DNA of 64,000 nucleotides from Candidatus Bathyarchaeota archaeon (GCA_963760485.1 CAVXDP010000011.1:574-64573); one strand, 5' to 3'; positions 5,880 through 61,212 are shown, counted from the stretch's first letter. A program made the numbers and translations. The notes: generated by a model from the sequence alone, not told the origin.

Positions 5880-6426
5880 GTGAGATATTGCTACAACATT
5901 CGCATCATCCAAATTCCAGAACCAAACAAACTAAAGATCAAAGAGGCTATCTCAGTAGTGGTACAAAGTATTGGAAATTACCATCAGAAATGCAACGAGA
6001 TCAGATTTCCAGCAATCGAGAAGTTAGCGTCAGAACTTGTCGAGGATATCGATAATACTGAAGGAATCAATGCCTCTCTCTGTTTACTAAGAACTTGCTT
6101 CGCTCTTTTAAGACAGTGCTAATTCGAATTTCTTGATCGCAGAATCAGAAGAAGCCATTGTCGGGTTCATACACTTCACAACTAGAAGAACACTCTTGCA
6201 TGATGGGCCATCTGGCTTGATCGATGAAGTCGTTGTCTCAAAGCAATATCGCGAAAAGTCTATTGGAAAACGGCTAGTTCTTGGCGGCATTTAAGAAATG
6301 TAAACAACTAGGGTGTTGCGAAATTGAGGTGAGTACTGAAAAGAAGAACAAAAAAGCGATAGAGTTCTACAGAGCTTGTGGTTTTCAAGAGCGTGGTATA
6401 CTCTTGGAGATGGACATTGACGAATA
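5880..6426 (+). CDS. GNAT family N-acetyltransferase (two frameshifts)
   Basis: Three collinear frames encode the GNAT N-terminus, then the core (EAIVGFIHF…VVSKQYREKSIGKRLV), then the C-terminus (EFYRACGFQERG). Frame changes lie near 6120 and 6295. Confidence 0.5.
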
Positions 6427-6489
6427 GGCGACCTTCACATGAGGCTTTTTGAGCTTTGACTGTGCTAGTACTCCAAGCCGTCTAGTTGT

Positions 6490-6807
6490 TCATCTATGGC
6501 GACTGTTTCTCCTATCTCGAGCATCAGTCTTTTGCCAGTCTCTCTTTCTTTGTGTTTCGATTCTCGCTCTTCCAGATTTGAATGACTGCAGATCCCTTCG
6601 GTACTCATGAATCTGAGCATAGAAACCTGAATAATCGCTTTCACTTTTCGAGAGGGAGAGAATCAGCTCGTTCAGTTTCAATCTAGCCCCGTCAGAACCA
6701 TTCTCATCCCAAGCTCGAGAATAGACATCATAGGCAACACGGAACTTGAAATCATTCGGCCTGTCGATCTCCAACTTCGACACAGGTTTCTCCGTATTTT
6801 CCGTCAT
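6490..6807 (-). CDS. hypothetical protein
   Basis: 105-aa ORF with no recognisable domain. Confidence 0.25.
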   Translation of the reverse strand: MTENTEKPVSKLEIDRPNDFKFRVAYDVYSRAWDENGSDGARLKLNELILSLSKSESDYSGFYAQIHEYRRDLQSFKSGRARIETQRKRDWQKTDARDRRNSRHR

Positions 6808-7176
6808 GAAAATTGAGCTCTCGGACTATGGTACCATATACTCAAGGTATTAAATGCATCCACGGGAGAATCAACGGACAAAATCATCTTCCGCAAACCC
6901 ACGATCTATGACGAGAGTCGATATATCGATTTTTTGAATAATCCTTTTTATCCGCTCGGTACATTAATGTTCCACGTGTGAGTTGATAATCATGACGGAC
7001 CTAAAGAGTTACCTTAGATGCAAAATGATTGATAGGTTCGGACACATTCCAATGCAGAGAGCAAAGTTTCACACTATCGATGAGTTACTGCTTGGATGCT
7101 GAGCAACGGTTCTTCCAACGACATTTGTCACAATACGCAAAACCTTCTCAACATGGTCCAAGTTCCGGACCACTAT

Positions 7177-7965
7177 TCACTGACGTGGTTGAAAAATGAA
7201 TGTGCAATACTCGTGTCCTTTGGTCATGCATTCTTCTTCCTTTACGAGAGTGGGTTGACCAAACACGCTACTCAATAGTCCCTCCAGATATCCTCTGAAG
7301 AAGTGGCTTCCAACCTGTGTCATCTTGCCGTCTATGCGAAGACATTCGAAGAGATCGTGCACCCTTATCTTGCCAGTTGCCCTAGTTTCATCGAACTCCA
7401 GTATCTCAGGTATTCCCCAGCCCTTAGCCACCCTTCCCGACAAGAAGACGTCTAACACATTTTTTCCTGTTAAGCCATACTTATCTCTGATAGCCTCCAC
7501 CTTACTGGTCCCTGCAACTAGGCCCATATGATACAACACGGAAGAAGCAGGAGGACCGAACATTTCGCGAAGTTGATGAAACATGGCAGATATTGTCCGA
7601 ACTGTAAGGATGATACATCTCTCGTCTATGGCTAGGACAGGGAAATGAACTTCATCCACGATTAGGCCTTCAATCTTCGCTTCATGAATCTTAACTTGTG
7701 AGACCACATTGAGCTTACTAACCTCCTCAGTCAAGCGTTCTGGGTCAATATCGGCCTCAGTGATGTCAGCAATGAAGCTGAAGAGGGCGGTAGGTTTTTC
7801 AGGATACGCTGTTACAAATCCAGAGCATAGATTGATGCCGAGTCTTGCTAGCTCGGTTGAGGTTTCTGCCAGTGCCCCTTTTACGTTCTTCATTTCAATT
7901 TGAAACTCAACTAGCCGTCTGTTGGGAGAGTATACGCCCATGAAGAGGTCTTTCTTATGTAGCAT
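7177..7965 (-). CDS. ACT-domain plus V4R-like (hydrocarbon-binding) domain protein
   Basis: The N-terminal ACT-like segment is VEFQIEMKNVKGALAETSTELARLGINL. The C-terminal half resembles V4R small-molecule-binding domains. Confidence 0.45.
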   Translation of the reverse strand: MLHKKDLFMGVYSPNRRLVEFQIEMKNVKGALAETSTELARLGINLCSGFVTAYPEKPTALFSFIADITEADIDPERLTEEVSKLNVVSQVKIHEAKIEGLIVDEVHFPVLAIDERCIILTVRTISAMFHQLREMFGPPASSVLYHMGLVAGTSKVEAIRDKYGLTGKNVLDVFLSGRVAKGWGIPEILEFDETRATGKIRVHDLFECLRIDGKMTQVGSHFFRGYLEGLLSSVFGQPTLVKEEECMTKGHEYCTFIFQPRQ

Positions 7966-8283: not shown

Positions 8284-8481
8284 ATGACACATCAAGTGTT
8301 GTTCGAGGAAAGAGGTGCATCCATGGTGCATAAGATTACGATTACGGAGGAAGTTTACAAGAGAATTGAAGCTCAAGCTCAAAAAGAAGGCGTCTCAGCT
8401 TCAAAACTAGCTGAGAAACTTCTCTTGGAAGTCATAACGCCGAAAGCAATGTCTTGTCCCAGATGTGCCTTCAGATTCTGA
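8284..8481 (+). CDS. small ribbon-helix-helix (CopG-like) protein
   Basis: 65-aa ORF. HKITITEEVYKRIEAQAQKEGVSASKLAEKLL has an RHH beta-strand/helix pattern. Confidence 0.3.
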   Translation: MTHQVLFEERGASMVHKITITEEVYKRIEAQAQKEGVSASKLAEKLLLEVITPKAMSCPRCAFRF

Positions 8482-9021
8482 TTAAACGACCGGCAAACAG
8501 AATTTGTCATTCGTCGTATTGCTGAGGTAGAGATCACATTTCTCAGGTTCATTGAACCCACCCTCATATGGGAAGCTTGGTGGATTGCGCAAGTGCCTAC
8601 GCGATTAAGCTTGCTCCAGCCTCTACCACATGACCATATGCGCTGGAAAATATTGAATGAAGATGCTTCTTGTTGAATGAGTGACTGTGGGATGAGGAAT
8701 ACCGCAGATACTCGAGTTCGATCTGCGGATCAAGTATCCACCCCCTTCTCAAGTTCAGGCCATGGCGATCGCCATTAATTCTCAACCCAATAAAGAAATG
8801 TCCAAAATCATCTTGTTTCTCGATTACGCGATATTCTATTCTTGTTGCAATGTCGTCGCCATTTACGTACGTAAATGCCTATGTAAGCATATGCCCGCAA
8901 CAATAATGTCGTTAACAATTGAGTCGACAACGATTATGTCGTTACTTGACATCGTTCACACTCCAATTTATTGGAGACAGTGATATAGCAATTTGTTATC
9001 GAGCGAAATGAGCATGCCGAG

Positions 9022-9459
9022 TTATGCCAATTCTCCCTTTGTAATGTCTTTGATCCTTTCACGCCAGTAGCTTGCGAGCATTTCGAGCTTGTTTGAGAAG
9101 ATGTCACTGAGCTGGGCTGGTTCATTTCGACGAACCCGGCTTAAGAGCCCACTTCGCATCATGGCCTGCCAGGTTTGACTTAGTGTCCGCGCTGAACAAT
9201 GTCTTTCCTTTATGATCTTAGGCGCCAAGTCCCTGTACAACTCGACGCGATAGGTTTTCATACGGCTCATTTCACGGAGAATCGCTTCGGCGAGTTGTGC
9301 CTTCCTAGGATTAAACGGAAAGAGCATAGTACAGAATACTCTCAGGTCTCCTATGCTGGTTCTCTGGGCATCGATCTTTGCGGTGATGTATCCTCTCCTT
9401 TTCATATAGTCTGCCCAGTACTCTTTGTCTTTCTTCGTCTCACTAAACCGCGAAGCCAA
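9022..9459 (-). CDS. hypothetical protein
   Basis: 145-aa basic protein with no family recognised. Confidence 0.3.
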   Translation of the reverse strand: MASRFSETKKDKEYWADYMKRRGYITAKIDAQRTSIGDLRVFCTMLFPFNPRKAQLAEAILREMSRMKTYRVELYRDLAPKIIKERHCSARTLSQTWQAMMRSGLLSRVRRNEPAQLSDIFSNKLEMLASYWRERIKDITKGELA

Positions 9460-9726
9460 GTGTGCCTACCTTACCCCATGGTGTGGTATGGTGGGATATC
9501 TTAGGTTTTGTCCCACATGGTGGTAATTGGGCCATTCCCCCACTAAAACATCTAGCTAACCCACGAGCCAAACAAATAATGCCTATGAATTATCCCATAG
9601 GGTGGATATGTCGCCCACAAAAAAAGTCCGATATATCGCACTCAAGTCGTGTATCTGCCCTCAGGGGGCTTCATTGGTTGTGTCTGGGCTGGCAAAGGTG
9701 GGAGAGGCGGGGGTATATTCAGAGTC

Positions 9727-10062
9727 TTAGATAGAAGAATAGCTTCGGCCATGGACGCATTCGAAACTGCTTGAACTACAGCTATGGGAGGCGGCTTTTG
9801 CTGCCTTGCTTTCATCCATCATCTTCTTGATCTCGGCACTGTCTCCTGTGATATACGCTCGCCCCCTAACACTGATTTGAGCGATTGATGGAACAAAGTT
9901 GACGGTAAATACAAACGGAGCCTCAGCCGCAACGTCTGATTTCTCTTCTAACCCCATGATATTGATATTCACATTAATGTGAATCTGAGGCGGCATCGGC
10001 TTGCTTACATCCCACAAGCGTTCTCCCGACAAGTTCGTAACAGAAACGTTCACAGTCAACAT
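9727..10062 (-). CDS. hypothetical protein
   Basis: 111-aa ORF with no family recognised. Confidence 0.25.
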   Translation of the reverse strand: MLTVNVSVTNLSGERLWDVSKPMPPQIHINVNINIMGLEEKSDVAAEAPFVFTVNFVPSIAQISVRGRAYITGDSAEIKKMMDESKAAKAASHSCSSSSFECVHGRSYSSI

Positions 10063-10072
10063 CCCGAGTCAT

Positions 10073-10384
10073 CTACCGCCTCGTACGAGTACCCACCCGC
10101 TTTAAACCTTGCTTCCCCAAACGTTTTTTCCTCCTCCTACCACGAACTAGCTTCCGAGACATACTTACGCTACGTTTTGTCCCAAACTTCCCCCTGCGCC
10201 AAGACAACTCCACAAGGAGTCTCTCTCCAGCTATCTTCACAGCAACATCGTCCCCCTCCAAAAAAGGGAAGCTGGAGTCATCCGTGAGTTTTGTCGGAAG
10301 ATAGATTCTAGGAGAACGGTAAACAATTCCTTTGTTCCCACGCTTTCTAGCGACCGCCATCTTCGTAATGATCTTCGTAACCAT
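10073..10384 (-). CDS. AbrB/MazE-like (swapped-hairpin) DNA-binding protein, putative
   Basis: IYLPTKLTDDSSFPFLEGDDVAVKIAGERLLVE resembles an AbrB/SpoVT-type barrel. It is followed by a highly basic R/K tail. Confidence 0.3.
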   Translation of the reverse strand: MVTKIITKMAVARKRGNKGIVYRSPRIYLPTKLTDDSSFPFLEGDDVAVKIAGERLLVELSWRRGKFGTKRSVSMSRKLVRGRRRKKRLGKQGLKRVGTRTRR

Positions 10385-10629
10385 TTACATTACCTTATAC
10401 ATAGACATTTACTTATGACTATAAAAGGCTTGCCCACGCTGAACACCTGTCGCAATCAAGAAAACAGAAGATCAAAAATTCTATGCCGAAACTTCAAAAT
10501 CGAAAGAAAACGGGAGAAGCCTATGGAAAGCGCCTGCCGATATCTGAGGGTGACACTTCCAACAAGTCTCGTAGACGCAGATTCGCTGGACTTGAACGTA
10601 GGTAACGAGAGCCGGGAGGATGTATGGGT

Positions 10630-10983
10630 CTATTCCAGTTCTGATGCTACTAGGTAGACGCCCGAAATGATGAAGAAAATCAGGGCTAATGGTGCGAACC
10701 AGGAGACAAAGCCTGATACCAGAAGTATCATCAGGAACACGATGTCAATCCATCCAGTTCTAGATTTCGGGAGCAGTTCTCCAGGTGCCATGCCCAGTCG
10801 TCTCGCGACATAGAGAATTGCGATCGCACTTGCAGCGAGCAGGGTTAGGTGGAAGAATGTGGCAACGAATAGAACTCCACCAATGGGTTTTGTGCCACCA
10901 CCATATGGGACTGGAATTCCCTTATACATGATTGGCATCGCCAGAGTTTCTAGGGCTAGGGCGATGGCCAAGACTACGACCAC
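10630..10983 (-). CDS. integral membrane protein (3-4 TM helices)
   Basis: Hydrophobic 117-aa ORF. Confidence 0.35.
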   Translation of the reverse strand: MVVVLAIALALETLAMPIMYKGIPVPYGGGTKPIGGVLFVATFFHLTLLAASAIAILYVARRLGMAPGELLPKSRTGWIDIVFLMILLVSGFVSWFAPLALIFFIISGVYLVASELE

Positions 10984-11493
10984 TGAGACTATGAGGATGA
11001 CTTTTTCTCTGTTCGTCTCGGGTCCGCTCCGGTTTTCGCAGATTGTGCTGAAGCTGTGTTTAAAAACATACCTGTTGTTGGGCGTTCACTCTTGAGCCTT
11101 TTACAGCGTTTGATGCAACAAGATATATTTGTACTGCAGAGAAATACCCATCCGGACGAGGGTATACAGCATTTGTCTGATGACGCAAAGCACATACTTG
11201 AAGTGAAACAAGCTGAGAAGCCTTTGAAAGCTTCCAAGGAAAGCCTTCAGTCTCTGAAGGGCGTCGCCGGAGGTAAGCAGATTGCGCGGATGAAAAAAGA
11301 GGCCGTGGACTGCCCAGTCATGGCCAAGACAGTCTGTTTTGTTGAGTGTTTCGCCTGCAAAAACTTCCTCAGAAGACTTAAGGGAACAGCCCACTGCAAA
11401 GGAGACGCATTACCATAGTCGCCACCAAGAGGACATGTTGATAGCCTCATTCGAAAAAACAAGGAAGGAGAGTCCGCAGGTTCTAAGAAACCG

Positions 11494-11781
11494 TTACTGC
11501 ACGACTTCTCCCGTAGCAAATCTATTTCCTACACGAGTAACCTTCACTTTGACGTGGTCCCCAGGTTTTGTGTTTGGAATGAAAATCACGAATCCTTGAA
11601 CCCGCGCGATCCCTTCACCGCGTCTACTCGTCTCTTTTACGTCAACTTCGTATTCCTTACCTTCTTCCACAGGTTTCTCAAATGGTGCGTCGCTGAAACT
11701 TCGTCTTTCAAAACTCATACGTCTCACCTCGCTCAGTTTGGAATAGCTAGCTACGGGAGAATACAATAGCGGCGGATTCAA
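11494..11781 (-). CDS. TRAM-domain protein
   Basis: The C-terminus GEGIARVQGFVIFIPNTKPGDHVKVKVTRVGNRFATGEVV is a canonical stand-alone archaeal TRAM domain. Confidence 0.7.
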   Translation of the reverse strand: MNPPLLYSPVASYSKLSEVRRMSFERRSFSDAPFEKPVEEGKEYEVDVKETSRRGEGIARVQGFVIFIPNTKPGDHVKVKVTRVGNRFATGEVVQ

Positions 11782-11973
11782 AAACGGCTCGCTAGCTCTT
11801 CCCCTTCGTACCTAACTTCGTTTCTAGCGAAGCCGGATTGTTTGATATAAAGTTTGTCCGATTGATATCGATTGCCAGAATTGTCTGATGTTCCCACGCC
11901 TGATGACCACCTTCAAGCAAGTTTTTTATATGAAAGGAACGCTTTCAGTCGCAATTTCGGGAGCGTGAGGAAA

Positions 11974-14128
11974 ATGACATTCGAAACCACCGTGTTGTGG
12001 GTTATAATCGGTACAGCTCTGGGTGCGCTTCTGTACGCTGCGCTTTTGGCACGCCATACTCTAAAGGAGCCAACTGGAACTGGCAAAATGCTTGAAGTTT
12101 GGAAAGCAATATCTGAAGGGGCTAATGCCTATCTCAAGAAGCAATTCAGGTCAATAGTTCTGATAATCGCTGTTCTCACAGTTGCACTTTATGCTTCCGC
12201 CGCTCTCGTGGGAGGGTCACCTTCGATCTCTATCGGAAGAGCAGCAGCGTTTCTGATGGGTGTGACTTTTTCTGGACTCGTCGGCTATCTTGGAATGAAT
12301 ATGGCAGTCAAAGGAAACATTCGTGTCACCGAGGCCTCACGCAGAAGTTTTCGGGATGCCCTAAGGATCGCCTACAGATCAGGAACAATAACTGGAATGT
12401 TGACAGATGGCCTAGGGCTTTTTGGAGGCACCTTGATCTTCATGATATACTTCAAGGATGCTCCACAGGTTCTATTGGGCTTTGGCTTAGGTGGTACACT
12501 GATCGCCCTGTTCATGCGAGTTGGTGGAGGAATCTACACAAAGGCTGCAGATGTTGGAGCTGACCTTGTTGGCAAGGTTGAGAAAGGCATTCCTGAAGAT
12601 GACCCCCGCAACGCAGCCGTAGTCGCTGATCTAGTAGGAGACAATGTAGGCGACTGTGCCGGGATGGCGGCGGATATCTTCGAGTCATACGAGGTCACAA
12701 TAGTATCAGCCATGATACTTGCCCTAGCTCTACTGCCTTTCGACGTGAAATGGATCATGTTTCCACTTATGGTCAGAGCTATCGGTGTAGTAAGTACGAT
12801 AGTTGGAACCTACTTTGTCTCTCTGTGGCCTCAGAGTCTTACTAAAGGTGATGCCTTCAAAGCCATGGACTTGTCATATGACCTCTCCGCGGCAATATCC
12901 GTTGTGAGTTTCTTCTTACTCGCAGAATTCTACGTTCACGATCTCAGAGTTTTTGTAGCAACTGCCGTTGGAATATTCCTAGCGATTGGATTCAACAAGA
13001 TAACAGACCACTTCACAAATCCCAATAAGAAACCCATTGATGAACTTGCACGGGCATCAAGAACAGGCGCTGCAACAGAGATACTCGGCGGTTTGTCACT
13101 GGGGTTCGAGGTAACCGTTTGGAACCTGTTGATAATATGCATCACGATATTAATCTCAGTCTCCGTTTTCTCGGGTTCAACAATCGTATTCATGATGTAT
13201 GCCATCGCTCTTTCTGGAATAGGCATGCTTACCCTAACCGGTAATAACGTCTCAATGGATGCATTTGGCCCCATAGTAGACAATGCCAATGGTATAGGCG
13301 AGATGGCTGGTGTGGAGCCTGCCGCCAGGAAGATCCTGGCCGATCTTGACGCATCTGGGAATACCACCAAAGCGGCGACGAAAACAATAGCTATTGCATC
13401 GGCTGTAATAGCAGCTGTTTCGTTGTTCGGTGCGTTTACCGAGACAACAGGGCTGCAAACGATTGGACTGAACATTGCTGACCCAATTGTCTTCGTTGGA
13501 TTACTGGTTGGAGGAGCTCTACCGTTCTTGTTCAGCTCAGGCGCGATACGTGCGGTAAGTAGAGCTGCAGGATCTATCATCGAAGAAGTGAGGACGCAGT
13601 TCAAAGTCCCCGGTGTGATGGAGGGAACTGTTAAACCTGATTACGCAAAGGTCGTAACAATCTGCACCTCAGCAGCCCAGAGAGAACTGGTAGGTCTTGC
13701 GATCATGTCAATACTCGCGCCACTGGCGATCGGACTCTTGCTCAAGCAGGCGAGCACTAGGAGCCTTTCTAGCAGGCATAATCGTGACAGGCCAGCTACT
13801 AGCAGTTTTTATGGCATCATCAGGAGCCTCTTGGGACAACGCCAAGAAGAAGATTGAAGATGGCTATTATGGCGGAAAGGGTTCTGAAAACCACAAGGCA
13901 TCAGTGACCTGCGACACTGTGGGCGACCCACTGAAAGACACTTCTGGCCCTGCTCTGAACCCCATGATAAAAGTCATCAACCTGATCTCGCTCATCTTCG
14001 CGCCACTGATCATCAAACTCGCCAGCCAACCACTGATCTCCGTACCTCTCGGCATTGTGTTTGTAGTGGCAATTGGAATTGCGGTCTGGTACGGAAAGCG
14101 AGAAGGCGCATTCACAAAGATTCAATAG
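11974..14128 (+). CDS. hppA: membrane-bound proton/sodium-translocating pyrophosphatase (one frameshift near ~13745)
   Basis: The 661-aa ORF and the following 143-aa ORF ([31 protein letters not shown]…[18 protein letters not shown]) are collinear V-PPase sequence. The likely start is the ATG at 11974, which is preceded by GTGAGG. Confidence 0.85.
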
Positions 14129-14269: not shown

Positions 14270-15564
<1,295 letters not shown>

Positions 15565-18153: not shown

Positions 18154-19242
18154 TTATAGGTCGAATTCGATGTCCAGATTCTTAGCCAGATCCCGGAGGC
18201 TCTCCCAGACCCTGAAGTATAGAGGTACCCCATTCTTTCTGTAGTCTTCCTCCAACTCCCATTCTTTTTCGCCATGGATGTAGATTCTTTCTTGGCCCTT
18301 TGCTTTGGCTGAGTTTCTGATAGTTCTGATCATGACGTCCATTCGTTCTTTGAACTCCTCTAGTGGCGTGAAAGCGTCAATATCTATGGCTCCTAGGAAG
18401 TGCCCGATATCAGATGGTTTGGGATCTTCTGGGGTTCCCACGTGAGGTCCATAAGCTGCTCCGGGTAGTATACCTGAGAGTATGTCGACGAGGATAGATA
18501 ATCCGTAGCCCTTGTATCCGGCGGTCTCATCTAATCCCCCCAACGGTAGGAGTCCACCACGTTTTGTCTTGTATATGGAGCGCATAACGGTCTCTGTGTC
18601 GACCGCAGGGTTATTGTCTTCATCTATTGCCCACCCTGTGGGCACTGGTTTTCCGTGTCTTCTGTAGACTTCCATTTTTCCGATTGGAACGACGCTCGTG
18701 GCCATGTCCAATACATAGGGGCGCTCGTGTTTCGTGGGTACGGCGAAAGCCACTGGGTTGGTTCCGAGTATGGGTTCTATGCCGAAGGTTGGAACGACAA
18801 GTGGCCACGCGTTTGTCGTACTGAGTCCTATCATGTTCTCTTTCAATGCCATCATGGCGTAATAGCCGGCGATTCCAATATGATTGCTGTGAGTAACGGG
18901 AGCAAATCCCAGATGAGTTTTCTTGGCTTTGTCGATGCATCGCTCCATAGCTCTATAGGCAACCACTTGTCCGAGGCTGTTTTCTCCATCTATGAGTAGG
19001 CTGACAGGAGTCTCCCTTCTTATTGTAAGTCTAGCTTTGGGCGGTATCCACCCGTTCATCAACCGGTTGGCATACCTGGGCAATCGTGAGACGCCATGCG
19101 ACTCGATTCCTCTCAGATCAGCTGATACGAGAACATTCGCTGTTATCTCAGCTTCATCATGTGGAACATCCAATCGTTCTAGAACGCGTACACAGAATGC
19201 CTGCAGAGAATCTGCTTGAACATTCCGTTCTTGATCAGGCAA
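18154..19242 (-). CDS. Ldh2-family 2-hydroxyacid dehydrogenase (malate/(S)-sulfolactate/2-hydroxyglutarate dehydrogenase type, ComC/MdhII-like)
   Basis: 362-aa Mdh/Ldh_2 family protein (IESHGVSRLPRY…HSNHIGIAGYY…). It is the last gene of the fwd-mch operon. Confidence 0.7.
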   Translation of the reverse strand: MPDQERNVQADSLQAFCVRVLERLDVPHDEAEITANVLVSADLRGIESHGVSRLPRYANRLMNGWIPPKARLTIRRETPVSLLIDGENSLGQVVAYRAMERCIDKAKKTHLGFAPVTHSNHIGIAGYYAMMALKENMIGLSTTNAWPLVVPTFGIEPILGTNPVAFAVPTKHERPYVLDMATSVVPIGKMEVYRRHGKPVPTGWAIDEDNNPAVDTETVMRSIYKTKRGGLLPLGGLDETAGYKGYGLSILVDILSGILPGAAYGPHVGTPEDPKPSDIGHFLGAIDIDAFTPLEEFKERMDVMIRTIRNSAKAKGQERIYIHGEKEWELEEDYRKNGVPLYFRVWESLRDLAKNLDIEFDL

Positions 19243-19280
19243 TCCGCTACTTCTCCGTATAGGATCACTATCACAGGATT

Positions 19281-20243
19281 CTAGAGCGTGTGGAGGCCCA
19301 TAGTTGTTTTGAGAACGTCTACGTTGATTTTTCCGGATGTATATGTGGCCCCAGTTCGGATGTTGTTTATTGAAACAACAGCTGGTGCAAAAAGGTTTGG
19401 ATCTATGTTGTAGAATTCGTAGTTGGCGGCTTTTAGGATGTCGTAGAATGGCTTGCCGTAGTCTTTGGCAGTTGAGGATGGAGCATTTGTTACATAGTCC
19501 TTCAGTTTCTCATCGTCCTCAAAATCTACTGTGTAGTAGGCTTCTCCTCCATAGTAGAGGGCGTCGTTGGTTCGCCCCATTGCCTTCTGATCCTTGGGAT
19601 GGATTGGGGCTATCGGTGCGTATCCACAACCATAGAGAATTCTCTTGATGTCAAAGCCGATCTGCATGAGCTTGTGAATTCCTGTTTCTACGATTCTTCC
19701 CGAGATCTGAATGGATCCACAGATCGATGTTGTCGGGGCCACCATCAAAACCAAGTTCTCAAAAGTAACTCCGCATTTCTTGGCCAGGTAGTCGATCGCA
19801 CATTCTGTCGGGTTTGAATTCGATTCAAGGACCAGCACAGCTCTATCGGATTTGTCTCTGTATTCAATCCTCTCGTAGACTTCTTTGGGTTTCAATGCAA
19901 GTGCTCGTCCGGGGCCCGACCCCATTGCAAAGTAGTCTTCAGTTTTTATCTGCCATCCAGCAAGTTGCGAACCCAGTGTAGAGATAGCGGGGTAGGCAGT
20001 CTCAACAAATATGCTTGGCAATGAAATGTCTCCGTACTTGGAGTATAGAATTGAAGCTTTACCTAGTCCAGCCAGACATAGCTCCGTCATAGCGATGCCA
20101 GCGCTGTATCCTCCTGGTGCCTTCACACCAGCGTCAAGAATCGTTGCACCCTTAGAATCTTTTTCAACGGTTACCCCGAGGCGCTCTTTGTCCCTCACGA
20201 TTCTTTCTACGACTCTCATGGCAGACACGTTGAGGCTTAACAT
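19281..20243 (-). CDS. mch: N5,N10-methenyl-tetrahydromethanopterin cyclohydrolase
   Basis: 320-aa protein matching Mch along its whole length (…GVKAPGGYSAGIAMTELCLAGLG…DYFAMGSGPGRALALKPKEVYE…). Confidence 0.85.
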   Translation of the reverse strand: MLSLNVSAMRVVERIVRDKERLGVTVEKDSKGATILDAGVKAPGGYSAGIAMTELCLAGLGKASILYSKYGDISLPSIFVETAYPAISTLGSQLAGWQIKTEDYFAMGSGPGRALALKPKEVYERIEYRDKSDRAVLVLESNSNPTECAIDYLAKKCGVTFENLVLMVAPTTSICGSIQISGRIVETGIHKLMQIGFDIKRILYGCGYAPIAPIHPKDQKAMGRTNDALYYGGEAYYTVDFEDDEKLKDYVTNAPSSTAKDYGKPFYDILKAANYEFYNIDPNLFAPAVVSINNIRTGATYTSGKINVDVLKTTMGLHTL

Positions 20244-20249
20244 GGATTA

Positions 20250-21089
20250 CTAGTCCTCCAACTTGTCGATATATGACTCGCACCACTTCAATTGTGGATT
20301 GCTCGAAACCTTCACTGACAGACGCCCATTTCCATTCTCATTAATATCGCCTAAGAATGAGTAGAATGGCCCGAGAAGTTTCTCTTCTGCAACCTTGACC
20401 TTGTCTCGCATGTCTTCGAAGACGAAACTTGGTAAAACTGATATGAGATTTCCGAGCATAACAACCTTGCCTGCAGTCATCTGAGCGCCTGCCCTTCCCT
20501 CGCAGTCTCCTTCGACTAGAACTGTTCCATCGGTCATGTGAATTCCCGGATACATTCCGACGTTTCCTTTTACTCTTATCAGTCCGCCTCTCATCCAACA
20601 TCCAACTTCTACCCCGGCGTTACCTTCAATCACAATGGATCCAGCTTTCATTCCATTTCTGCTTCCACGATACGCTGAACCAACAAAATCTCCAGCATTT
20701 CCATGAACCTCGATAATTCCGCCGTTCATTCTCGATCCTACCCATGACCCTGCGTCGCCTTCGACAACAATTGTTCCACCAGACATTCCTTCTCCGAGAT
20801 GCATTCCCACGTCTCCCTCAATTTGAATGCCGCCAGCTGTCATTCCATGACCTATTCTTCGAATCTTCTTCAGATCTCCGAGAACTCTTATTCCAAGATC
20901 CTTCGGTGAAGTGTCGGCATTACCTTCCAGAGAGAAGATCTCCTTCAGCCGACTTTTCCTGTTTCCTTCCCAGAGGTCAAGTGAGAGAATCTCCTCATTC
21001 GATTTGCCGCTGAGAATGTCAGGTGTGATGCATGAACCATCCACGGGGACCGTTAGAGGTCGTATGAGTCTAATTGTGAGCTCTGTCAA
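20250..21089 (-). CDS. fwdC: formylmethanofuran dehydrogenase subunit C
   Basis: 279-aa protein with repeated GxxGxxMxGG beta-helix motifs (…MTAGGIQIEGDVGMHLGEGMSGGTIVVEGDAGSWVGSRMNGGIIEVHGNAGDFVG…) typical of FwdC/FmdC. Confidence 0.8.
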   Translation of the reverse strand: MTELTIRLIRPLTVPVDGSCITPDILSGKSNEEILSLDLWEGNRKSRLKEIFSLEGNADTSPKDLGIRVLGDLKKIRRIGHGMTAGGIQIEGDVGMHLGEGMSGGTIVVEGDAGSWVGSRMNGGIIEVHGNAGDFVGSAYRGSRNGMKAGSIVIEGNAGVEVGCWMRGGLIRVKGNVGMYPGIHMTDGTVLVEGDCEGRAGAQMTAGKVVMLGNLISVLPSFVFEDMRDKVKVAEEKLLGPFYSFLGDINENGNGRLSVKVSSNPQLKWCESYIDKLED

Positions 21090-22789: not shown

Positions 22790-22793
22790 TCAA

Positions 22794-24568: not shown

Positions 24569-24593
24569 TCTGGAAACTTGTCATTTAGAGCCA

Positions 24594-24615
24594 CTTTATG
24601 TAGTTATATTGTATT
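24594..24615 (-). promoter_or_regulatory. candidate archaeal TATA-like promoter element for the fwdDBAC-mch operon
   Basis: The minus-strand sequence aatacaatataactacataaag is A/T-rich and TATA-like. It sits ~27-47 nt upstream of the fwdD ATG. Inferred from position only. Confidence 0.25.
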
Positions 24616-24787
24616 ACAGGTTTGATTGTCTGCGCGTATGGTCAATCCTGCAGGTAGAATTGACGTGCCCAAGCTAGGAAGGAGTCTTTGAGTTGCAGTC
24701 GTGGCAGTCTTGTCGGCGCTTCACACAAGCAATTTGGTTGAGTGGCCTATTGGATAATGAGTCAATTCTATTGAATAGCAAAGTGAC

Positions 24788-25181: not shown

Positions 25182-26748
25182 TCAACTGAACATTACGGAA
25201 TCCTGAACGTAGCTCTTCCCCGTTCTTAGAGCAATCTCAGCTTTCCCTAGTTCGTAACCAAGATAAGCAGAATGCTTCAAGTTTGATACAAGATCTAAGT
25301 CAATTATTGAGCTGTAGATCTCGATGGCAGTCTGTCCTCTCGCGACAAAATCGGCTTTTTCTCTTTTGCCCATTGGGTAGTGAATTGCTACCATTTGCCC
25401 GGCTCCTCGATCGATCATTATCTTGAAACAGCCCTTTGGATCCATCTGCAACTGCTGCCGCGTTGATCTCTGAACCTGTCTTGCGCCCTCAACATACCCT
25501 GGGTTGAACGGCTCCTCCAAGAAACGTTTCTCCTTCAAAAAGAGAAGATCGATCCCCAGACTTTTTGGAATGCACCCTCTTCTTCTGGCTAAGAACATCA
25601 TTCTTGAAGCCATTGAAAGTTCTTTAACGCATCCCTTACAGACATTACTTACTTCAGTAGTCAATAGAAGGTTTATCCCAAGCTCTGACGCGACCCCCGC
25701 TGCGAGAGCATTCACGCCTGGTGTATCAGCATCCAATAGTTCACTGACATTTCCGATTCCGGCGAACAACGGTAGCTCAGGTTCAGCTACGCGAAACTTG
25801 TGGTAACTCACAATAGACTCCACAAAGCCAGGAGAGCCGATTGGATCCAATATCAAATCGGCCAGGATACGGTTCATACCGAGGCTTCTGACAGTCTTGA
25901 TGTTTCCTTTCATCATGTCCACGCGTTTGCCCGAATCCTTAGGAAAGTATCCTTTTTCATGGTTTGTCGGTATCACAACCACAGCTACTTGACTGGCAAA
26001 GTCCGACATGGACTCAGCGTTTCCTGCGTCAACGCTCAGTACCAGATCAGCGCCGGCCTGAACACCTGCCCTAGCCTCAGCTGGATCCATGGTGTCGATA
26101 GTTATCGGGACTTTGACGGCTTCTTTTGCAGTCTTAACAGCTCGTCTCGCATCTTGTTCTCTACCGCCACCAACGGTCATTCCAATATCGACGATGTCTG
26201 CACCAGAGTGAACGTAGTATCTCGCTCTCTCGGCTATTTGCTCATCGGAAAGAAAAGGCACATCAACAATTTCTGCAATAACACGCATAGGAAAATCTTT
26301 CCCAACAGGAAGAGACCCCACCAGCATGTTTCCCGGTTTCTTCAAAAGTTCGTCACGATTCTTCTCCGATGACTCTAGCTCACCCAGAGCCCTTTCTCTA
26401 AGCTCCTCTTTCAACAGTTCACATGCTGGAACCACTTTTGATAGTTTTACATTTTCATATAGGTCGAGTACAACGGGAAGATCGGCGAGCATAACGTGGC
26501 CCCTTGAACGTCGGTATTCTGGTTACTTGCTCGATACGCCAGACGTCACCAAATATGAAACCTGGTGTCAGAATCGCATCGTATCCTTTCGGCGCGATCT
26601 CTCTCAGAGCCTCCGCGACAGCCTTAGCTGTCAATAGCGCTGCTACAGGTGATGGCAAAGCGACGACATCGTAGTCAACATGACTTTCCTTAGCATATCT
26701 TTCTACAAGACCTTTTGCCAACTGTCCCGTGATAAGTAGAATCTTCAA
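25182..26748 (-). CDS. dihydropteroate-synthase-like pterin-binding protein with fused C-terminal domain (MJ0107 family), one frameshift near 26455-26492
   Basis: The 97-aa ORF (MKILLITGQLAKG…) and the 436-aa ORF (…VGKDFPMRVIAEIVDVPFL…GADIVDIGM…TIDTMDP…) are collinear with archaeal MJ0107-type DHPS paralogs of the H4MPT pathway. Confidence 0.7.
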
Positions 26749-27194: not shown

Positions 27195-27957
27195 CTAGAG
27201 TTCACCGAGAGTAACATTATCGACTCCATCAATCTTTTCTCCAGACCCAGTTGCATTCAATATCTCTGCTCTAGCCCAACTAGCCAACCAACTTAACAAT
27301 TCCTTTGCCATCTGAAGCTTTCTTATCTTCTTTGAGCCTGCACGATAATCCATTATGTGACCCGGCTTAGAATATTTTCCCGCAACCGTGCCAAAATCCA
27401 TTCCCAACAGGATTACGCGTTTGGCCCCAACCTCCTCCGCCAGGAAAGCCAGCTCTGTCACCATCTGTGAAACCTCCAAAATTGTACACGTGGGGACGCG
27501 CCTCTACCTGAGTCGATCCAAGTACACTCCCAAACTTTGGAACATACCTCATAAGAGAGATCTCGTTATCTCCGTGAGCGTGAATAACCACCACCGACCC
27601 TTTCTTACTTGCATCCACTAAATCTCCAACATCACCATCTAGATCCGTTACCACAATTTCCGGAACAAGATGGTAGCCCCTCAAGAGTGAAGTGGTCGCA
27701 CCGTCTGCTGCAATCGATATCGACCTGCCTTTCAGCCCCGATGTGAGATACTCATTGAGGTTTCTCTCAAGCGAGGGACCGCAACCGAATACGACTGCGT
27801 TCTCACGCTCGACTATTCTCTGGACAGCCGAGGGAAGAATTGCTTTGCCCTCTAACAACTTCTCCAGGAGATCTGCTGACTTCGCGTCCTCGGACCAATC
27901 AAAAGAGAATGCAGTGAGAATCCTTTCGTACCAAGGGCGCCATTTGTCAAAATCCAT
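27195..27957 (-). CDS. mptE: archaeal 6-hydroxymethyl-7,8-dihydropterin pyrophosphokinase (one frameshift near ~27420)
   Basis: The N-terminal 196-aa ORF and the C-terminal 94-aa ORF overlap in different frames. Together they give a ~250-aa MptE/DUF115-type protein (…VVFGCGPSLE…VVTDLDGD…). Confidence 0.6.
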
Positions 27958-49207: not shown

Positions 49208-49835
49208 GCAGACGTCGCTTTGCCACATGAGAAGAAATGAGAATGCTCATCAGCACAGTCGCCACGTAGATTGGCATGTCGATCCAGAACTCGGGGATTG
49301 GAGTCGAAGGTTCAACTGATACGTGACTAGGCGTAGCCGCCGAATCCATGTACAATACCACATTGGGGTCAGGAATCAGAGTGTTCTTCACAGGCGTTAG
49401 TTGCAATGCAAGCGCCCCTCCAGCCGGCACTTGAAATGTGCTCGTGAAGAGGTTCAGACTGTACTCGTTGGGGAATTGTCTAATGCCAGTAATGTTACCT
49501 TGAGCCATTACTTGGAAACTCCCCGCAGACAGATAGCCAATAGCGACACGCAATGATGTTGACATGACGGTATACCCCAGCCAGAGAGATATTGTCCAGG
49601 TGCTCACATCTATTGATATATCTGAAGACAGTACGCCCGTTCTGAAATAGTACGACACGTAGCCCAAGTCAAGAGGATAGGAGTACTGCGTCGGCTGATT
49701 CTCATCCATCAGGTATTCAAAAGGATTCTCAAAAGTCCACTTATGGAGGTAGAAGACCTGAGCTGGACTTGCCTTCACCGAACCCATCGACAATGCCAGT
49801 AGGACTAGAAGACCGATGACCACTATCGCCCTCAT
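49191..49835 (-). CDS. secreted/surface protein with N-terminal signal peptide and C-terminal TM anchor, hypothetical
   Basis: Signal-like N-terminus MRAIVVIGLLVLLALSMGSVKASP. The C-terminus has a hydrophobic helix followed by KRR. Confidence 0.35.
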   Translation of the reverse strand: MRAIVVIGLLVLLALSMGSVKASPAQVFYLHKWTFENPFEYLMDENQPTQYSYPLDLGYVSYYFRTGVLSSDISIDVSTWTISLWLGYTVMSTSLRVAIGYLSAGSFQVMAQGNITGIRQFPNEYSLNLFTSTFQVPAGGALALQLTPVKNTLIPDPNVVLYMDSAATPSHVSVEPSTPIPEFWIDMPIYVATVLMSILISSHVAKRRLPILTF

Positions 49836-50203
49836 GGAATCTCCCTGGATCCTAATAGCTTCACATCTAATTGAAAGTTAGCTTTTGCCCTTGCAACTAA
49901 CCAACCGAAGATCATCGTCGACGTGTGCTGCACGGACTCGCACACCGCCTGAACGGCACAAGGGGTTCCGTAAGGCTTCTAGTCTAGCTACGAGTCTAGA
50001 CCAGGGCGCTATTTAAGCATCGGTCAACAATAAATGATGTCATAATGCCCACAACAACTGGAATTTGAGTGACAGGTGATCATGAAGCTCGCCTGTCCCA
50101 CATCGAGGAACCGCAGCGGTTGACATGTTCTATCAAATAACATGTTAGAGTGTTCGAGCCCAGAACGGATTTCTTGCGCTTAGCATTATAGGAGTGATCG
50201 GAT

Positions 50204-50452
50204 ATGGGTATCAAAGAGAAATTTACTCGTGCCAACTGGGAGCTGAATTGCCTCTTCAGAACTGGTAAACTACCACAGTGCACAGCACCAACGCCATACT
50301 ACCCACAGGGAGGTTCGCATACAGGATGGTCTGGGGGACGGCAGGCGCTTTGTAGTATGTGTGGGAGACAGATTCGCAAAGGCGACAGATTCTGCGACAG
50401 GTGTGGCACGCGGACCCTTTCAAACCTAACCTCACAAAGAAGGCCACAATAA
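50204..50452 (+). CDS. small zinc-ribbon protein, hypothetical
   Basis: 82-aa protein ending in CSMCGRQIRKGDRFCDRCG. Confidence 0.3.
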   Translation: MGIKEKFTRANWELNCLFRTGKLPQCTAPTPYYPQGGSHTGWSGGRQALCSMCGRQIRKGDRFCDRCGTRTLSNLTSQRRPQ

Positions 50453-50510
50453 ATCGCTGGAAGATTCCGAGTCCAGGTTCTTCACGGACGTTAAGCTAAG
50501 GGTCGCGTTA

Positions 50511-53139: not shown

Positions 53140-53648
53140 GGCGCGATTCGACATAACGGTTGCCCCAAGTGTCTTCTACGAGTTTTTTTCGAGTCATGTC
53201 GATTATTAGAGTGTTTAGGATGTTCTGCCGGGTACCCCAATGGGATTATTGCGACTGGCAGTACCCCTTCTGACAATTCTAGGATTTCAGAAACCTATTT
53301 CTCATTGAAGGATCATGCCCAGCATGTTCCAAGACCCAGAGCATGACCGGCAAGCAAGAGGTTTTGAACAGCTGCTGCAGTATCTTGGATACAGAAGAGG
53401 TTGACTCCTCTCTCCATAGTATCTTCCCGACCTACGTTGATCGGCACAGACTACTATAACAACGGGTGCCTCTGCAACCATCGACTGTCCTAGCGCGGCT
53501 TCTGTGAGGTCTCTCTTTGTGCGGTTTCTTTTAGTACAACGAAACACTAGGGGTGCAGGCTGCCAGCAGATGGATCTTGAGATGCAGCTTCTAGAATTCT
53601 CAAGCTTCCTTCTGGAATCTGGTTCCTAGTATACTTTCGAATGCTACA
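53140..53648 (-). pseudogene. nitroreductase-family gene remnant (>=3 frameshifts plus an in-frame TAG where Trp is expected)
   Basis: Manual translation of the minus strand gives MDLLDALKNRCSIRKYT…ILEAASQDPSAGSLHP, then a TAG stop, then CFVV. After frame changes it continues APVVIVVCADQRRSGRYYGER, then IQDTAAAVQNLLLAGHALGLGTCW, then IPLGYPAEHP. All are nitroreductase hallmarks. Confidence 0.6.
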
Positions 53649-53805
53649 CCTGTTTTTGAGAGCGTCAAGGAGATCCATCTTAGCACCTGCTCCAGAGTGG
53701 AATATGCTCAAACAAAAGGGCAGTGGTCAACTACGTTAACATAAACCGAAATAAGCAAGGCTTTGCGATTAGTGCCCGAACACTACGTACGCGAGGTAAT
53801 GCGGA

Positions 53806-59165: not shown

Positions 59166-59259
59166 AGGCACTTCATCAAAGTGAAGTAACTGCTCTCTAG
59201 GCCCACCCGAATCAGCGCCTATTCTTGCATGGGCTGAATATGTACTCTGGGAAAACGAG

Positions 59260-60387
59260 ATGACGTTTCCAAATTTGGAGTCTTGGAAGTGCTCCTGCGG
59301 AAGGCATAGTTGGCCAAAGATAGAAGTCATTGTTGAGAAAGGCGCTCTAGAGAAGCTTCCTGAAGTGAGAAGAAAACTTGGCCTCGGCGGAAGCTGCCTG
59401 ATCGTAGATGATGTGAATACAAGAGAAGTTGCTGGAGCCTCCCTTAGAAGGTCGTTGCAGCGAGACGATTGCCACGTTTCAGAAGTCGTGGTTGGGAGAC
59501 CTGACGAAGCAAACGTGGAGAAAGTCGTTGAAAGAGTTGGAAAAGGCGATTTTCTGTTGGGGGTGGGAGGAACCAGCGTTTTGGACATAACGAAACTTGC
59601 TGCTTACCGTGCCTCGGTTAGATACGTCATTGTTTCAACCGGAGTTGCCAACAATGGAATGAGCTCAAAGACTGCTTCAATTTCCATCAAGGGGAAAAAA
59701 GAAACGATTCCTGTGAGCCTTGCTGACGCATTGATCGTTGATCTCGCAATCGTTTCAGATGCTCCAACATGGATGGTGGCGGCTGGATGTGGAGATTTGG
59801 TAGCTGAGACAACTGCCATAAAGGACTGGCAACTCGGCCGAGACGAGCAGTCAGAACCCTACTGCAATTCTGTAGCCGAATTAGAGCTATCGGCTCTTAA
59901 CGATGTGATAGCCAATATTGAGATGATCAAATCGAGAAACGATGCGGGCATCAGAATCCTTGTGAACGCTCTCATCAGATCAGGACTTGGAATGACGATT
60001 TGGGGATCCTCAAGACCCGCTTCTGGGTCAGAACACCTTTGGTCGCATTGGCTTGACCACTATGCTGATGAGAACAAGATCAGATTTGGGCAGCATGGTG
60101 AACAAGTAGGTATTGGAACATGCCTTATGGCGAAATATCATGAGCTCTATGATCAAAATTGGTGGAGTTGTACGCAGCATCCCGTCTACCAAGCAGAGGC
60201 TTTAATGTCGTTTCTCAAAGGAGCTGGCGCTCCTGCAACACCATCTGAAATAGGTATCGAGAGGAGACTGGCGATCCAAGCTTTCTTGGACGCATGGGAG
60301 TATAGAAAAGAAAGATACACGATATTGCACAAGCGTCATCCGAGTCGACAAGATGCTGATAGAATATTGAGACAACTTTCCATGTGA
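59260..60387 (+). CDS. egsA: glycerol-1-phosphate dehydrogenase [NAD(P)+]
   Basis: GVGGTSVLDITK (a GGGS-type nucleotide loop) is present. AAGCGDLVAETTAIKDWQL and SSRPASGSEHLWSH…HGEQVGIGT closely match archaeal G1PDH signature blocks. Confidence 0.8.
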   Translation: MTFPNLESWKCSCGRHSWPKIEVIVEKGALEKLPEVRRKLGLGGSCLIVDDVNTREVAGASLRRSLQRDDCHVSEVVVGRPDEANVEKVVERVGKGDFLLGVGGTSVLDITKLAAYRASVRYVIVSTGVANNGMSSKTASISIKGKKETIPVSLADALIVDLAIVSDAPTWMVAAGCGDLVAETTAIKDWQLGRDEQSEPYCNSVAELELSALNDVIANIEMIKSRNDAGIRILVNALIRSGLGMTIWGSSRPASGSEHLWSHWLDHYADENKIRFGQHGEQVGIGTCLMAKYHELYDQNWWSCTQHPVYQAEALMSFLKGAGAPATPSEIGIERRLAIQAFLDAWEYRKERYTILHKRHPSRQDADRILRQLSM

Positions 60388-60439
60388 ATTCTTACGGAAA
60401 CAAAGGAACGGAGCTATTCGAATCGTTCCAGACAAAGCA

Positions 60440-61212
60440 TCATATCAGGAACAATGAACGACTCAGTTTTCTATGGGTCAAGATAGCTCGTAATGCGAGT
60501 TGCATTTCCAACGAAGCTCAGAAAAGGTGGCGAAACTTGATCAGATAACCCATCAAGAAAACTTCTCATCCTCAGAACCGGAACGATTGGCACGTTCATG
60601 ATATTCCTTGAGCATACATCCGCAAGAGTTACTAGGATCGGCACGAATGTGAATTCCGTTCGATCTGAAAGCCTAAGTCTCTTGATATGATTCGAAATCT
60701 CATCAGCGAGCGCCTTCGTTCGTACTATCTGCTGCTTGCACCGCAGTTGTTATCCTGCTTCTCTGCCATCCATACGTCCAGTGTTTGCAATCAACGCAGA
60801 GCACGAGTCTCCCCTTGACTCCAACAATATCGATTTCCCATCTCTTTCCCCTCTGCTTGAAAATGAAATGTCTTTTCGAATCATAACCATTTGAATCAAG
60901 AGCAATCAAGGTGACTTCTTCAAATTCTTTCCAATTCAGTTTCCTGCAAACTCTCTCTGGGTCGGCGCCGTCTTTTAAAGCCTCAACAGCTATGGCAATA
61001 CGCTGCTCATCGTCGGTGCATATCACGCCATCAACTATCGACACGGAGTCTTTGGCTGCCAATTTCTCTATGTAGGTTTGAACAAGACTCCTTGGAGTTC
61101 TCGACAATTCGGCAAGTTCATCAAATCCTATAGTTTGGTCCGTCTGCGTAGCTTTTAGAATTGATAACAGAACTTCCCGCGAGATCAATCTACTCTGATC
61201 AACCTCATACAA
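60440..61212 (-). CDS. wHTH plus PD-(D/E)xK nuclease-like protein (possible frameshift near 60715 extending the C-terminus)
   Basis: 169-aa ORF with an N-terminal wHTH and RWEIDIVGVKGRLVLCVDCKHW (an E-x-D … D-C-K nuclease core). The next frame continues with coding-like sequence for ~85 more aa. Confidence 0.4.

Follow-up and report, generated by a model that had tools for sequence, protein, structure and literature searches.

Single-base insertions at GCWGC in a Bathyarchaeota contig: probable consensus errors beside one real pseudogene

In programmed +1 frameshifting, known from bacterial prfB and from Euplotes genes, the signal lies on the sense strand, has a fixed form and a fixed codon phase, and is conserved among relatives. 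Frameshifts in metagenome-assembled genomes (MAGs) also have a technical source, the indels of long-read sequencing, which are recognised with the IDEEL test (PMC9262707). In Listeria, methylation of the motif GCWGC (G5mCWGC) leads to nanopore consensus errors, in which a few percent of the methylated sites are miscalled (PMC10687267; 10.1101/2024.07.12.603236), and these errors are mainly mismatches (PMC10687267). For many archaea, especially for the Thermoproteota, m5C methyltransferases for this pentamer are listed (PMC11033074).

Here, we analyse a window of 64,000 nucleotides (the whole stretch of DNA studied, from Candidatus Bathyarchaeota archaeon, GCA_963760485.1 CAVXDP010000011.1:574-64573). 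An original prediction, made by reading this DNA alone, had claimed that conserved and normally essential genes are split here by single-base frameshifts, and had preferred sequence error to recoding or genome decay as their explanation.

Frame breaks and contigs of the same population

All of the genes named in that prediction (eno, hppA, lig, mptE, an MJ0107-like gene, a GNAT acetyltransferase, a PD-(D/E)xK gene and a TM zinc-ribbon gene) are indeed split, as judged from Pfam coordinates and from frameshift-aware alignment to orthologues. The Pfam profile coordinates run on across the frame breaks, at 81|83 in GNAT and at 564|562 in H_PPase, and the two shifts claimed for eno appear as Enolase_N 35|26 and then as a passage from Enolase_N 119 to Enolase_C 4. 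The list of genes was correct and incomplete, because sites at 9804, 11790 and 50090, a histidine kinase and a nitroreductase pseudogene are affected as well. The frames do change by one, as had been stated, but the supposed mixture of +1 and -1 changes was not found: every resolved break in the listed genes is a +1 insertion.

In total, 18.4 kb of the window (18,359 reference bases) were compared with contigs of the same population, which are 95-99.7% identical to it and come from more than eight public samples. ERZ27247924, ERR10755944, 3300032070 and 3300035701 are examples of samples in which this population occurs. The names and lengths of these reference contigs suggest short-read assembly; three of them (L059-L061) were obtained by a chimeric query against metagenomes. 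Within the compared bases, 11 uncompensated 1-base insertions and 1 deletion are private to the window. Over the full 64 kb there are at least 14 private indels, a load that would far exceed that of accurate prokaryotic sequence. The motif-linked insertions and the genes that carry them are listed below, with the extra base in square brackets.

2661..4690, plus strand: PAS histidine kinase; at least four frame breaks, only that at 4016 linked to the motif
4016: kinase, GGCTGC[C]GATGG, with an extra C that borders GCTGC (as deduced from orthologues); its deletion restores GCWGC
9804, minus strand: small hypothetical gene (9727-10062), GCTG[C]CTTGC, with an extra C at GCTGC; private
11790: intergenic, TRAM gene to hppA, ACGGCT[C]GCTAGC, with an extra C inside GCTGC; private
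11935..14128, plus strand: hppA, H+-pyrophosphatase; one break
13752: extra G in hppA, CAGGC[G]AGCAC, inside GCAGC (as deduced from orthologues); one +1 event relative to the 88%-identical hppA of L057
14270..15564, plus strand: eno; two breaks, both +1
14384: eno, AGA[G]GCAGC, with an extra G that borders GCAGC; private; L001, a JGI contig with 98.8% identity, reads AGAGCAGC
14646: eno, GGCT[C]GCTTC, with an extra C inside GCTGC; absent from L001; its deletion restores an internal GCWGC
25182..26748, minus strand: MJ0107-like gene (DUF6513, Pterin_bind and DUF4346); one break
26487: MJ0107-like pterin-binding gene, GGC[G]AGCA, with an extra G inside GCAGC; private; absent from L059 (99.4% identical)
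27195..27957, minus strand: mptE; one break
27449: extra C in mptE, AAAG[C]CAGCTC, inside GCAGC; private; absent from L059
50090: no gene called here, GAAGCT[C]GCCTGT, with an extra C inside GCTGC; private; absent from L139
50643: TM zinc-ribbon gene, CTGGC[G]AGCTCC, with an extra G inside GCAGC; private; absent from L139
60736: extra T in the NERD/Mrr-like (PD-(D/E)xK) gene, GCTGC[T]TGCAC, inside GCTGC; private; absent from L060 (99.3% identical)

The prediction had described the sites at 14384 (AGA[G]GCAGC) and 13752 (GC[G]AGC) exactly. When one base is deleted per break, full-length enolase, H+-pyrophosphatase, DNA ligase, MptE, MJ0107-like, nuclease-like and TM zinc-ribbon proteins are obtained. 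The enolase repaired at 14384 and 14646 is identical to P0001 at 428 of 430 residues. Without G13752, hppA encodes KQAALG, as in L057, GCAGC is restored, and the repaired protein spans positions 3-645 of the 645 in H_PPase. The repaired PD-(D/E)xK-like protein, whose gene has one break, is 246 aa long with weak matches to NERD and Mrr_cat. Single +1 events likewise separate the MJ0107-like gene from P0121, mptE from the MptE of L054 and, by frameshift-aware alignment, lig and the TM zinc-ribbon gene from their orthologues. The exact site at 50643 is given by one contig, L139, which encodes an intact TM zinc-ribbon protein of 122 aa. The product of the small hypothetical gene has 111 aa here and 124 aa in L144 and L145, both of which are without the extra C. 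The extra C at 11790 is missing from eight contigs of eight different samples (L144-L150 and L152), and in L139 no gene is called across the equivalent of 49835-50507 of the window.

Eno, mptE, the MJ0107-like and nuclease-like genes and their neighbours contain no other lesions, and their 1,579 codons show 18 synonymous versus 8 non-synonymous differences. In eno there are 9 synonymous versus 1 non-synonymous differences, despite the two uncompensated insertions. Intact orthologues of the affected genes are present in all of the relatives examined. It should be mentioned that the window represents a distinct strain with substitutions of its own (54 private substitutions in the ~8 kb for which two or more references are available), so that the absence of an extra base from other strains is, taken alone, no proof of error. 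The private substitutions do not cluster at GCWGC. Further frameshifts were sought in unannotated genes with a codon-usage hidden Markov segmentation, a sliding frame-switch score and an ORF-merge scan of all single-base deletions; these scans were too noisy because codon usage is only weakly biased and spurious ORFs abound, and insertions may be undercounted across the 45 kb without references. The tRNA and Rfam scans returned nothing relevant.

The GCWGC context of the insertions

The pentamer GCWGC (GCAGC or GCTGC) holds or adjoins 9 of the 11 private insertions, which has a probability of ~1e-15 by chance, and the breaks in hppA and the histidine kinase have the same context when they are reconstructed through orthologues. 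Deletion of a base restores an internal GCWGC at only 393 of the 64,000 positions, the references carry 46 GCWGC sites in 18.4 kb, and the motif offers ~1.5% of the insertion slots. The most frequent form is GCAGC read as GC[G]AGC, and the affected share of the GCWGC sites in the window is ~9%. None of the break sites in the genes of the original prediction lies in a long homopolymer, as it had stated for the sites inspected. Moreover, none of the 11 motif-linked insertions (nine exact and two reconstructed) falls in a run of three or more bases, four of them (eno 14384, mptE 27449, PD-(D/E)xK 60736 and kinase 4016) turn a single base into a doublet, and no homopolymer run-length differences were seen in the 18.4 kb compared. 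This is unlike homopolymer indel error of the nanopore, 454 or Ion Torrent type, which alters the length of mostly long runs.

A motif common to the sites had been proposed as a possible sign of programmed frameshifting. The common motif is present, but it is not a translational signal: the sense strand shows either GCAGC or GCTGC, the inserted base may occupy any of the phases 0, 1 and 2, and at two sites it lies outside genes. Because GCWGC thus appears in both mRNA orientations, in three codon phases and in intergenic DNA, the cause must be sought at the level of the DNA or of its sequencing.

The motif is not depleted in the window (113 intact sites versus ~120 expected), which is compatible with a restriction system but no argument for one. 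None of the 42 GCWGC sites in 15.9-26.3 kb and 28.1-47.8 kb is affected (P = 0.008, for regions picked post hoc), and a nearest-neighbour test for patchiness of the affected sites was not significant (P = 0.15).

A real pseudogene and the breaks outside the motif

The remaining lesions are found at the following positions.

5880..6427, plus strand: GNAT acetyltransferase; three frames and two breaks, the first within 6070-6135 and the second at 6277
6277: extra G in GNAT, GGCTA[G]TTC; not at GCWGC; absent from L061
51305..53087, minus strand: lig, ATP-dependent DNA ligase; one break
52357: extra base in lig, TTG[C]GAGG on the coding strand versus TTGGAGG in the references; private; not at GCWGC
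53165..53690, minus strand: nitroreductase-family pseudogene; stops and frameshifts common to L139 and L140
53520: nitroreductase pseudogene, 1-base deletion (GG to G); private, with GG in both L139 and L140

The nitroreductase-like gene is a true pseudogene, common to the population: two independent assemblies carry its stops and frameshifts as well. Its TAG stops (~53547 and ~53295) and its frameshifts (~53413 and ~53198) are identical in L139, where no gene is called at this locus, and L140, which ends near 53563, has the two frameshifts and the downstream one of these stops. At 53315, L140 likewise reads TGA, where L139 has GGA. Among the broken genes, only this one has lesions of mixed types that are common to independent assemblies. 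Sequence error as an explanation is supported for the motif-linked genes of the original prediction and does not extend to this gene, which it had not listed. Reassignment of stop codons was rejected for these stops, since they align to W, G and E/R and one of them is polymorphic between strains.

At the lig site L139 and L140 concur: neither has the extra base, and both encode an intact 589-aa ligase. The repaired protein gives a full match to all three ligase domains. For GNAT, the contig L061 is only 95% identical, its own GNAT copy is degenerate, and homology is lost at 6127; after repair at 6277 there is a continuous Acetyltransf_1 match over positions 37-116. These two insertions and the one deletion, all of them off the motif, may be ordinary residual indel error.

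In the kinase, a +1 event at ~4017 is demanded by all three homologues used (P0241-P0243, 66-71% identical). Its other breaks resemble putative contractions of short runs from three bases to two, at ~3300 (CCC to CC), at 4476 (GGG to GG) and at 4487, and the region 3800-3843 is also disturbed, with an in-frame TGA at 3809. The chimeric-query homologue search gave only MJ0107-like and kinase homologues, with 66-73% identity; no near-identical kinase, GNAT or nitroreductase was recovered by it, the candidates having been swamped by PAS/histidine-kinase families. The motif gives no account of the private insertions in lig and GNAT or of the putative short-run deletions in the kinase.

Origin of the extra bases and comparison with known systems

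We conclude that the extra bases in eno, hppA, mptE, the MJ0107-like, TM zinc-ribbon and nuclease-like genes and at one kinase site are spurious, that is, private consensus errors rather than mutations. The Bathyarchaeia-like archaeon probably methylates the cytosine of GCWGC, an m5C motif that is very common in archaea, and the contig is suspected to derive from long reads of native DNA, most likely nanopore reads. A basecaller or polisher would then mishandle the modified GCWGC, and correction with accurate reads would have been incomplete. That the motif-linked insertions are artefacts is very probable, whereas methylation as their specific cause is a plausible reading that we favour with less assurance; weighing the two jointly, we put the probability at roughly 80%. 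The preference of the original prediction for sequence error is upheld by the absence of the extra bases from every near-identical contig of other public assemblies, and further by the near-exclusive occurrence of insertions, the single DNA motif and the excess of synonymous differences.

The same artefacts might arise from long-read indel noise, motif-specific or random, that has no link to methylation, for example through a context bias of the basecaller or polisher at GCWGC, low coverage, or confusion of mixed strains in the consensus. The small share of GCWGC sites affected, the two private insertions and one deletion off the motif, the putative short homopolymer contractions in the kinase, and the location of broken accessory genes in strain-variable DNA, where L061 is 5% divergent and loses homology at 6127, would all fit such noise. 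If the noise were purely random, however, 9 of 11 insertions would not have landed on 1.5% of the positions. A pure context bias would look the same as methylation in these data, but GCWGC is both a documented methylation-error motif and a common target of archaeal methyltransferases; we regard noise of this kind as possible but unlikely.

Three explanations take the extra bases to be real. A strain in genome decay, with eno, lig and hppA among its many recent pseudogenes, would be in keeping with the nitroreductase pseudogene common to two other assemblies, with the degenerate GNAT copy of L061, and with the private substitutions of a distinct strain. Decay, however, yields mixed lesions, such as the stops, insertions and deletions of the nitroreductase, and not +1 insertions almost exclusively at one pentamer, intergenic copies included. 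Moreover, the affected genes serve central functions and are intact in all of the relatives examined, and neither the enolase ratio of 9 to 1 with two uncompensated insertions nor the overall ratio of 18 to 8 indicates relaxed selection, so that decay seems highly improbable. We give similarly little credence to a recent +1 insertional mutagenesis targeted to GCWGC in this strain, affecting ~9% of the copies; it may have come, for example, from error-prone repair after self-restriction or from methyltransferase-linked damage, and the cells may have survived through paralogues or a mechanism that skips the extra base. Finally, the bases might be tolerated by recoding at a signal derived from GCWGC, be it programmed +1 frameshifting, transcriptional slippage or RNA editing, as the uniform +1 sense of the resolved breaks and their common context could suggest. 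Against this, the context occurs in both mRNA orientations and all three codon phases, the sites have neither a stop codon nor a slippery run, non-coding DNA contains identical events, and no frameshift is conserved in any of the 95-99.7% identical strains or in sister species; recoding can practically be dismissed.

Annotation, pathway reconstruction and pseudogene counts are distorted for this contig, and probably for the whole genome bin: extrapolated to a genome of a few megabases, the rate of at least 14 private indels per 64 kb would mean several hundred broken genes. The signature of the motif-linked errors is recognisable, a 6-mer that reverts to GCWGC on removal of one base, which allows them to be located and repaired, with the public contigs identified here as references. 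True (nitroreductase) and artefactual pseudogenes stand side by side in this window and are separable only by comparison with other assemblies. The pattern also hints, indirectly, at GCWGC methylation in an uncultured lineage of the Bathyarchaeia.

Compared with the known systems, the window resembles programmed +1 frameshifting in that reading through one extra base would take a +1 shift, and differs from it in that the orientation and phase of the signal are mixed and relatives do not conserve it. Like the long-read errors in MAGs recognised by IDEEL-type tests, which are fixed by short-read polishing, the insertions split conserved genes into adjacent ORFs and damage the annotation. Classic long-read errors are homopolymer insertions and deletions, whereas here insertions outnumber deletions 11 to 1 and no long homopolymer is involved. 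The motif is the same as that of the archaeal GCWGC m5C methyltransferases of the M.ApeKI type, and the Bathyarchaeia are placed with the Thermoproteota, in which such enzymes are commonly predicted (PMC11033074); unlike in the M.ApeKI-type systems, no methyltransferase gene was seen within the 64-kb window, and the methylation is itself deduced. Published GCWGC-linked nanopore errors are mainly mismatches and those of the window are insertions, which is a point against methylation as the cause. The Listeria monocytogenes ST87/ST121 errors come from bacterial isolates for which the platform and the methyltransferases are established, whereas the window holds single-base insertions in an uncultured archaeal contig. 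In both cases the same pentamer is concerned and a small share of its sites is miscalled; the errors in Listeria occur only in the native-DNA long-read assembly and do not show up in short-read data, and those of the window are likewise private to one assembly.

Gene content and the split genes

The sequence is archaeal (47% GC) and closest, among named relatives, to Bathyarchaeia MAGs (80-86% identity to named Bathyarchaeia proteins for the ligase, ~68% for the enolase); its genes include formylmethanofuran dehydrogenase subunits, mch, ftr, hppA, eno, and lig. The tRNA and Rfam scans of the window found no tRNA and no Rfam family. At 18154-32392, a methanofuran/H4MPT one-carbon gene set, all intact and here in a Bathyarchaeia-like genome, adjoins pterin biosynthesis genes; the fwd/fmd B, D, A, and C-like subunits and ftr were identified by eye from translations, and MCH and other neighbours follow the annotation of contig L056. 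The pterin cluster consists of mptE, a gene of the DHNA family (so annotated in L054), and the MJ0107-like gene. In L054, a 73%-identical relative, a 221-aa flavoprotein gene (2072-2737) separates the latter two, where the window has only ~30 bases (26748-26779). In L055 (3618-4903), a relative whose enolase shares 85% identity, the hppA that precedes eno has only 238 aa and adjoins a phage-integrase fragment, which suggests truncation of hppA by a rearrangement in that lineage.

The genes named in the original prediction are indeed split. Pfam coordinates continue over neighbouring ORFs in different frames (from 81 to 83 in GNAT, 564 to 562 in H_PPase, 35 to 26 in Enolase_N, and Enolase_N 119 to Enolase_C 4). 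Its descriptions of one eno and one hppA site are exact, and none of the checked breaks lies in a long homopolymer, as had been stated for the sites inspected; the frame changes, described as +/-1, are real, but every resolved break is a +1 insertion. In a purpose-written frameshift-aware protein-to-DNA alignment with intact orthologues, eno needed two +1 events, and hppA, mptE, the MJ0107-like gene, lig, and the TM zinc-ribbon gene exactly one each, with no other lesion in these six genes. When one base was removed per break, full-length matches were regained for Enolase_N (1-131) plus Enolase_C, H_PPase (3-645 of 645), all three DNA ligase domains, MptE-like, DUF6513 + Pterin_bind + DUF4346, and the zinc ribbon, and the PD-(D/E)xK-like protein gave weak NERD/Mrr_cat matches.

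Private insertions and the GCWGC motif

A search with the enolase led to L001, a 1.9-kb JGI contig (98.8% DNA identity) that encodes an unbroken protein of 430 aa sharing 99% identity with the fragment in the window. A metagenome scan with a chimeric bait added L059, L060, and L061, and exact look-ups of the small intact proteins TatA, rhomboid, and TRAM added 14 further contigs (ENA, Logan, and JGI samples). To judge by their names and lengths, these references are probably short-read assemblies. At 95-99.7% identity they span 18,359 bases of the window, over which the window has 11 uncompensated one-base insertions and one such deletion, at 53520.

Uncompensated one-base insertions relative to the references (extra base in brackets; GCWGC is GCAGC or GCTGC)
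6277, GNAT (plus strand), off GCWGC
9804, GCTGC[C]
11790, outside genes, GC[G]AGC or GCT[C]GC
14384, eno (plus strand), GCTGC[C]
14646, eno (plus strand), GC[G]AGC or GCT[C]GC
26487, MJ0107-like gene (minus strand), GC[G]AGC or GCT[C]GC
27449, mptE (minus strand), GC[C]AGC
50090, outside genes, GC[G]AGC or GCT[C]GC
50643, TM zinc-ribbon gene, GC[G]AGC or GCT[C]GC
52357, lig (minus strand), off GCWGC
60736, GCT[T]GC

The extra base at 11790 is absent from eight contigs of eight samples, that at 52357 from L139 and L140, which both encode an intact ligase, and that at 50643 from L139, where the encoded protein is intact (L140 ends short of the site). The other indels are one of three bases, one of two bases, and two compensated pairs. 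These pairs, at 15243-15247 (KR to RR in eno) and 6586-6588, fall within 3-5 bases and act as small multi-base substitutions; neither is at GCWGC, nor is the 2-base deletion relative to L060 at 59173, between two genes. The region of small hypothetical genes at 8286-11900, with 2-3.6% strain divergence against ~0.3-1.2% for the rest, accounts for the majority of the private substitutions and includes an in-frame indel of 3 bases (8666-8668).

Nine of the 11 insertions lie within or directly against a GCWGC of the reference. The commonest product, GC[G]AGC on one strand or the other, recurs in hppA at 13752, and GCTGC[C] recurs in a kinase gene at 4016. Because GCWGC accounts for only ~1.5% of insertion slots (46 sites in 18.4 kb of reference), the probability of 9/11 by chance is ~1e-15; in the window, deletion restores an internal GCWGC at 393 of 64,000 positions. 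Since 113 intact sites remain, near the Markov expectation, ~9% of the window's sites are affected.

Breaks off the motif and a nitroreductase pseudogene

In lig, the private insertion (TTG[C]GAGG on the coding strand, TTGGAGG in the references) is off the motif, as is the likewise private one in GNAT at 6277. The first GNAT break is placed only to 6070-6135; L061 (1-900) loses homology upstream of 6127, and its GNAT remnant (window 6127-6322) has three TAG stops in a span of 12 codons, at positions that are sense codons in the window. The spot appears to vary between strains, with GNAT decaying independently in L061. Besides its motif-linked site, the PAS histidine kinase gene (2661-4690) has putative 3-base-run contractions at ~3300, 4476, and 4487 and an ambiguous stretch with an in-frame TGA (3800-3843); the searches found no near-identical reference for it, so ordinary indel error and real decay are both possible for its non-motif breaks.

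A further broken gene was missing from the original list:
53165-53690, minus strand, nitroreductase-family pseudogene (counterparts L139 5276-5790 and L140 2171-2570)

Compared with the intact orthologues of sister species (L006, L008), it carries three frameshifts and three in-frame stops. The two TAG stops and two of the frameshifts, both insertions, recur in the independent assembly L139, which has no called gene there; L140, which ends near 53563, shares the downstream TAG and both insertions. The TGA at 53315 is polymorphic (shared with L140, GGA in L139), and of the lesions only the 1-base deletion at 53520 is unique to the window. The gene is truly decaying in the population, an example of real decay that contrasts with the motif-linked insertions.

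Origin of the motif-linked insertions

Translational recoding would call for a conserved signal specific in sense and phase. The suggested check for a shared context did reveal a common motif, but its sense-strand form varies between GCAGC and GCTGC, the inserted base occurs in all three codon phases (0, 1, and 2), and two insertions are outside genes (11790, and 50090 in a stretch without a called gene in L139). Real decay would be expected to leave mixed lesion types and relaxed selection, whereas the insertions are at one motif, and codon differences from the references in the affected genes are 18 synonymous to 8 non-synonymous over 1,579 codons (9 to 1 in eno, despite two uncompensated insertions), so the genes have been under purifying selection throughout the divergence. 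The original observation holds and has been broadened; as a biological phenomenon it is not real, the nitroreductase pseudogene excepted. The evidence backs sequence error, already the preferred reading, and narrows it to a systematic error tied to one motif. The practical use of this result is as a caution about the contig and a recipe for its repair.

A strand-symmetric 5-base motif, a classic restriction-modification target, points to a cause in the DNA or the sequencing chemistry. In Listeria, G5mCWGC methylation causes nanopore consensus errors with both R9 and R10.4.1 chemistries, the miscalled share of methylated sites being just a few percent (PMC10687267; 10.1101/2024.07.12.603236); many archaea, notably Thermoproteota, are listed with GCWGC m5C methyltransferases (PMC11033074); and indels in long reads are known to introduce frameshifts into MAGs (PMC9262707). 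These reports lead to the proposal that the likely cause is GCWGC methylation, which the source organism would carry, combined with native-DNA long reads, from which the contig would have been built with incomplete polishing. A sequence-context bias at GCWGC without methylation is a possible alternative. Two caveats apply to the proposed methylation: the window's private substitutions show no clustering at GCWGC, and the published Listeria errors at GCWGC are mainly mismatches, whereas those in the window are insertions.
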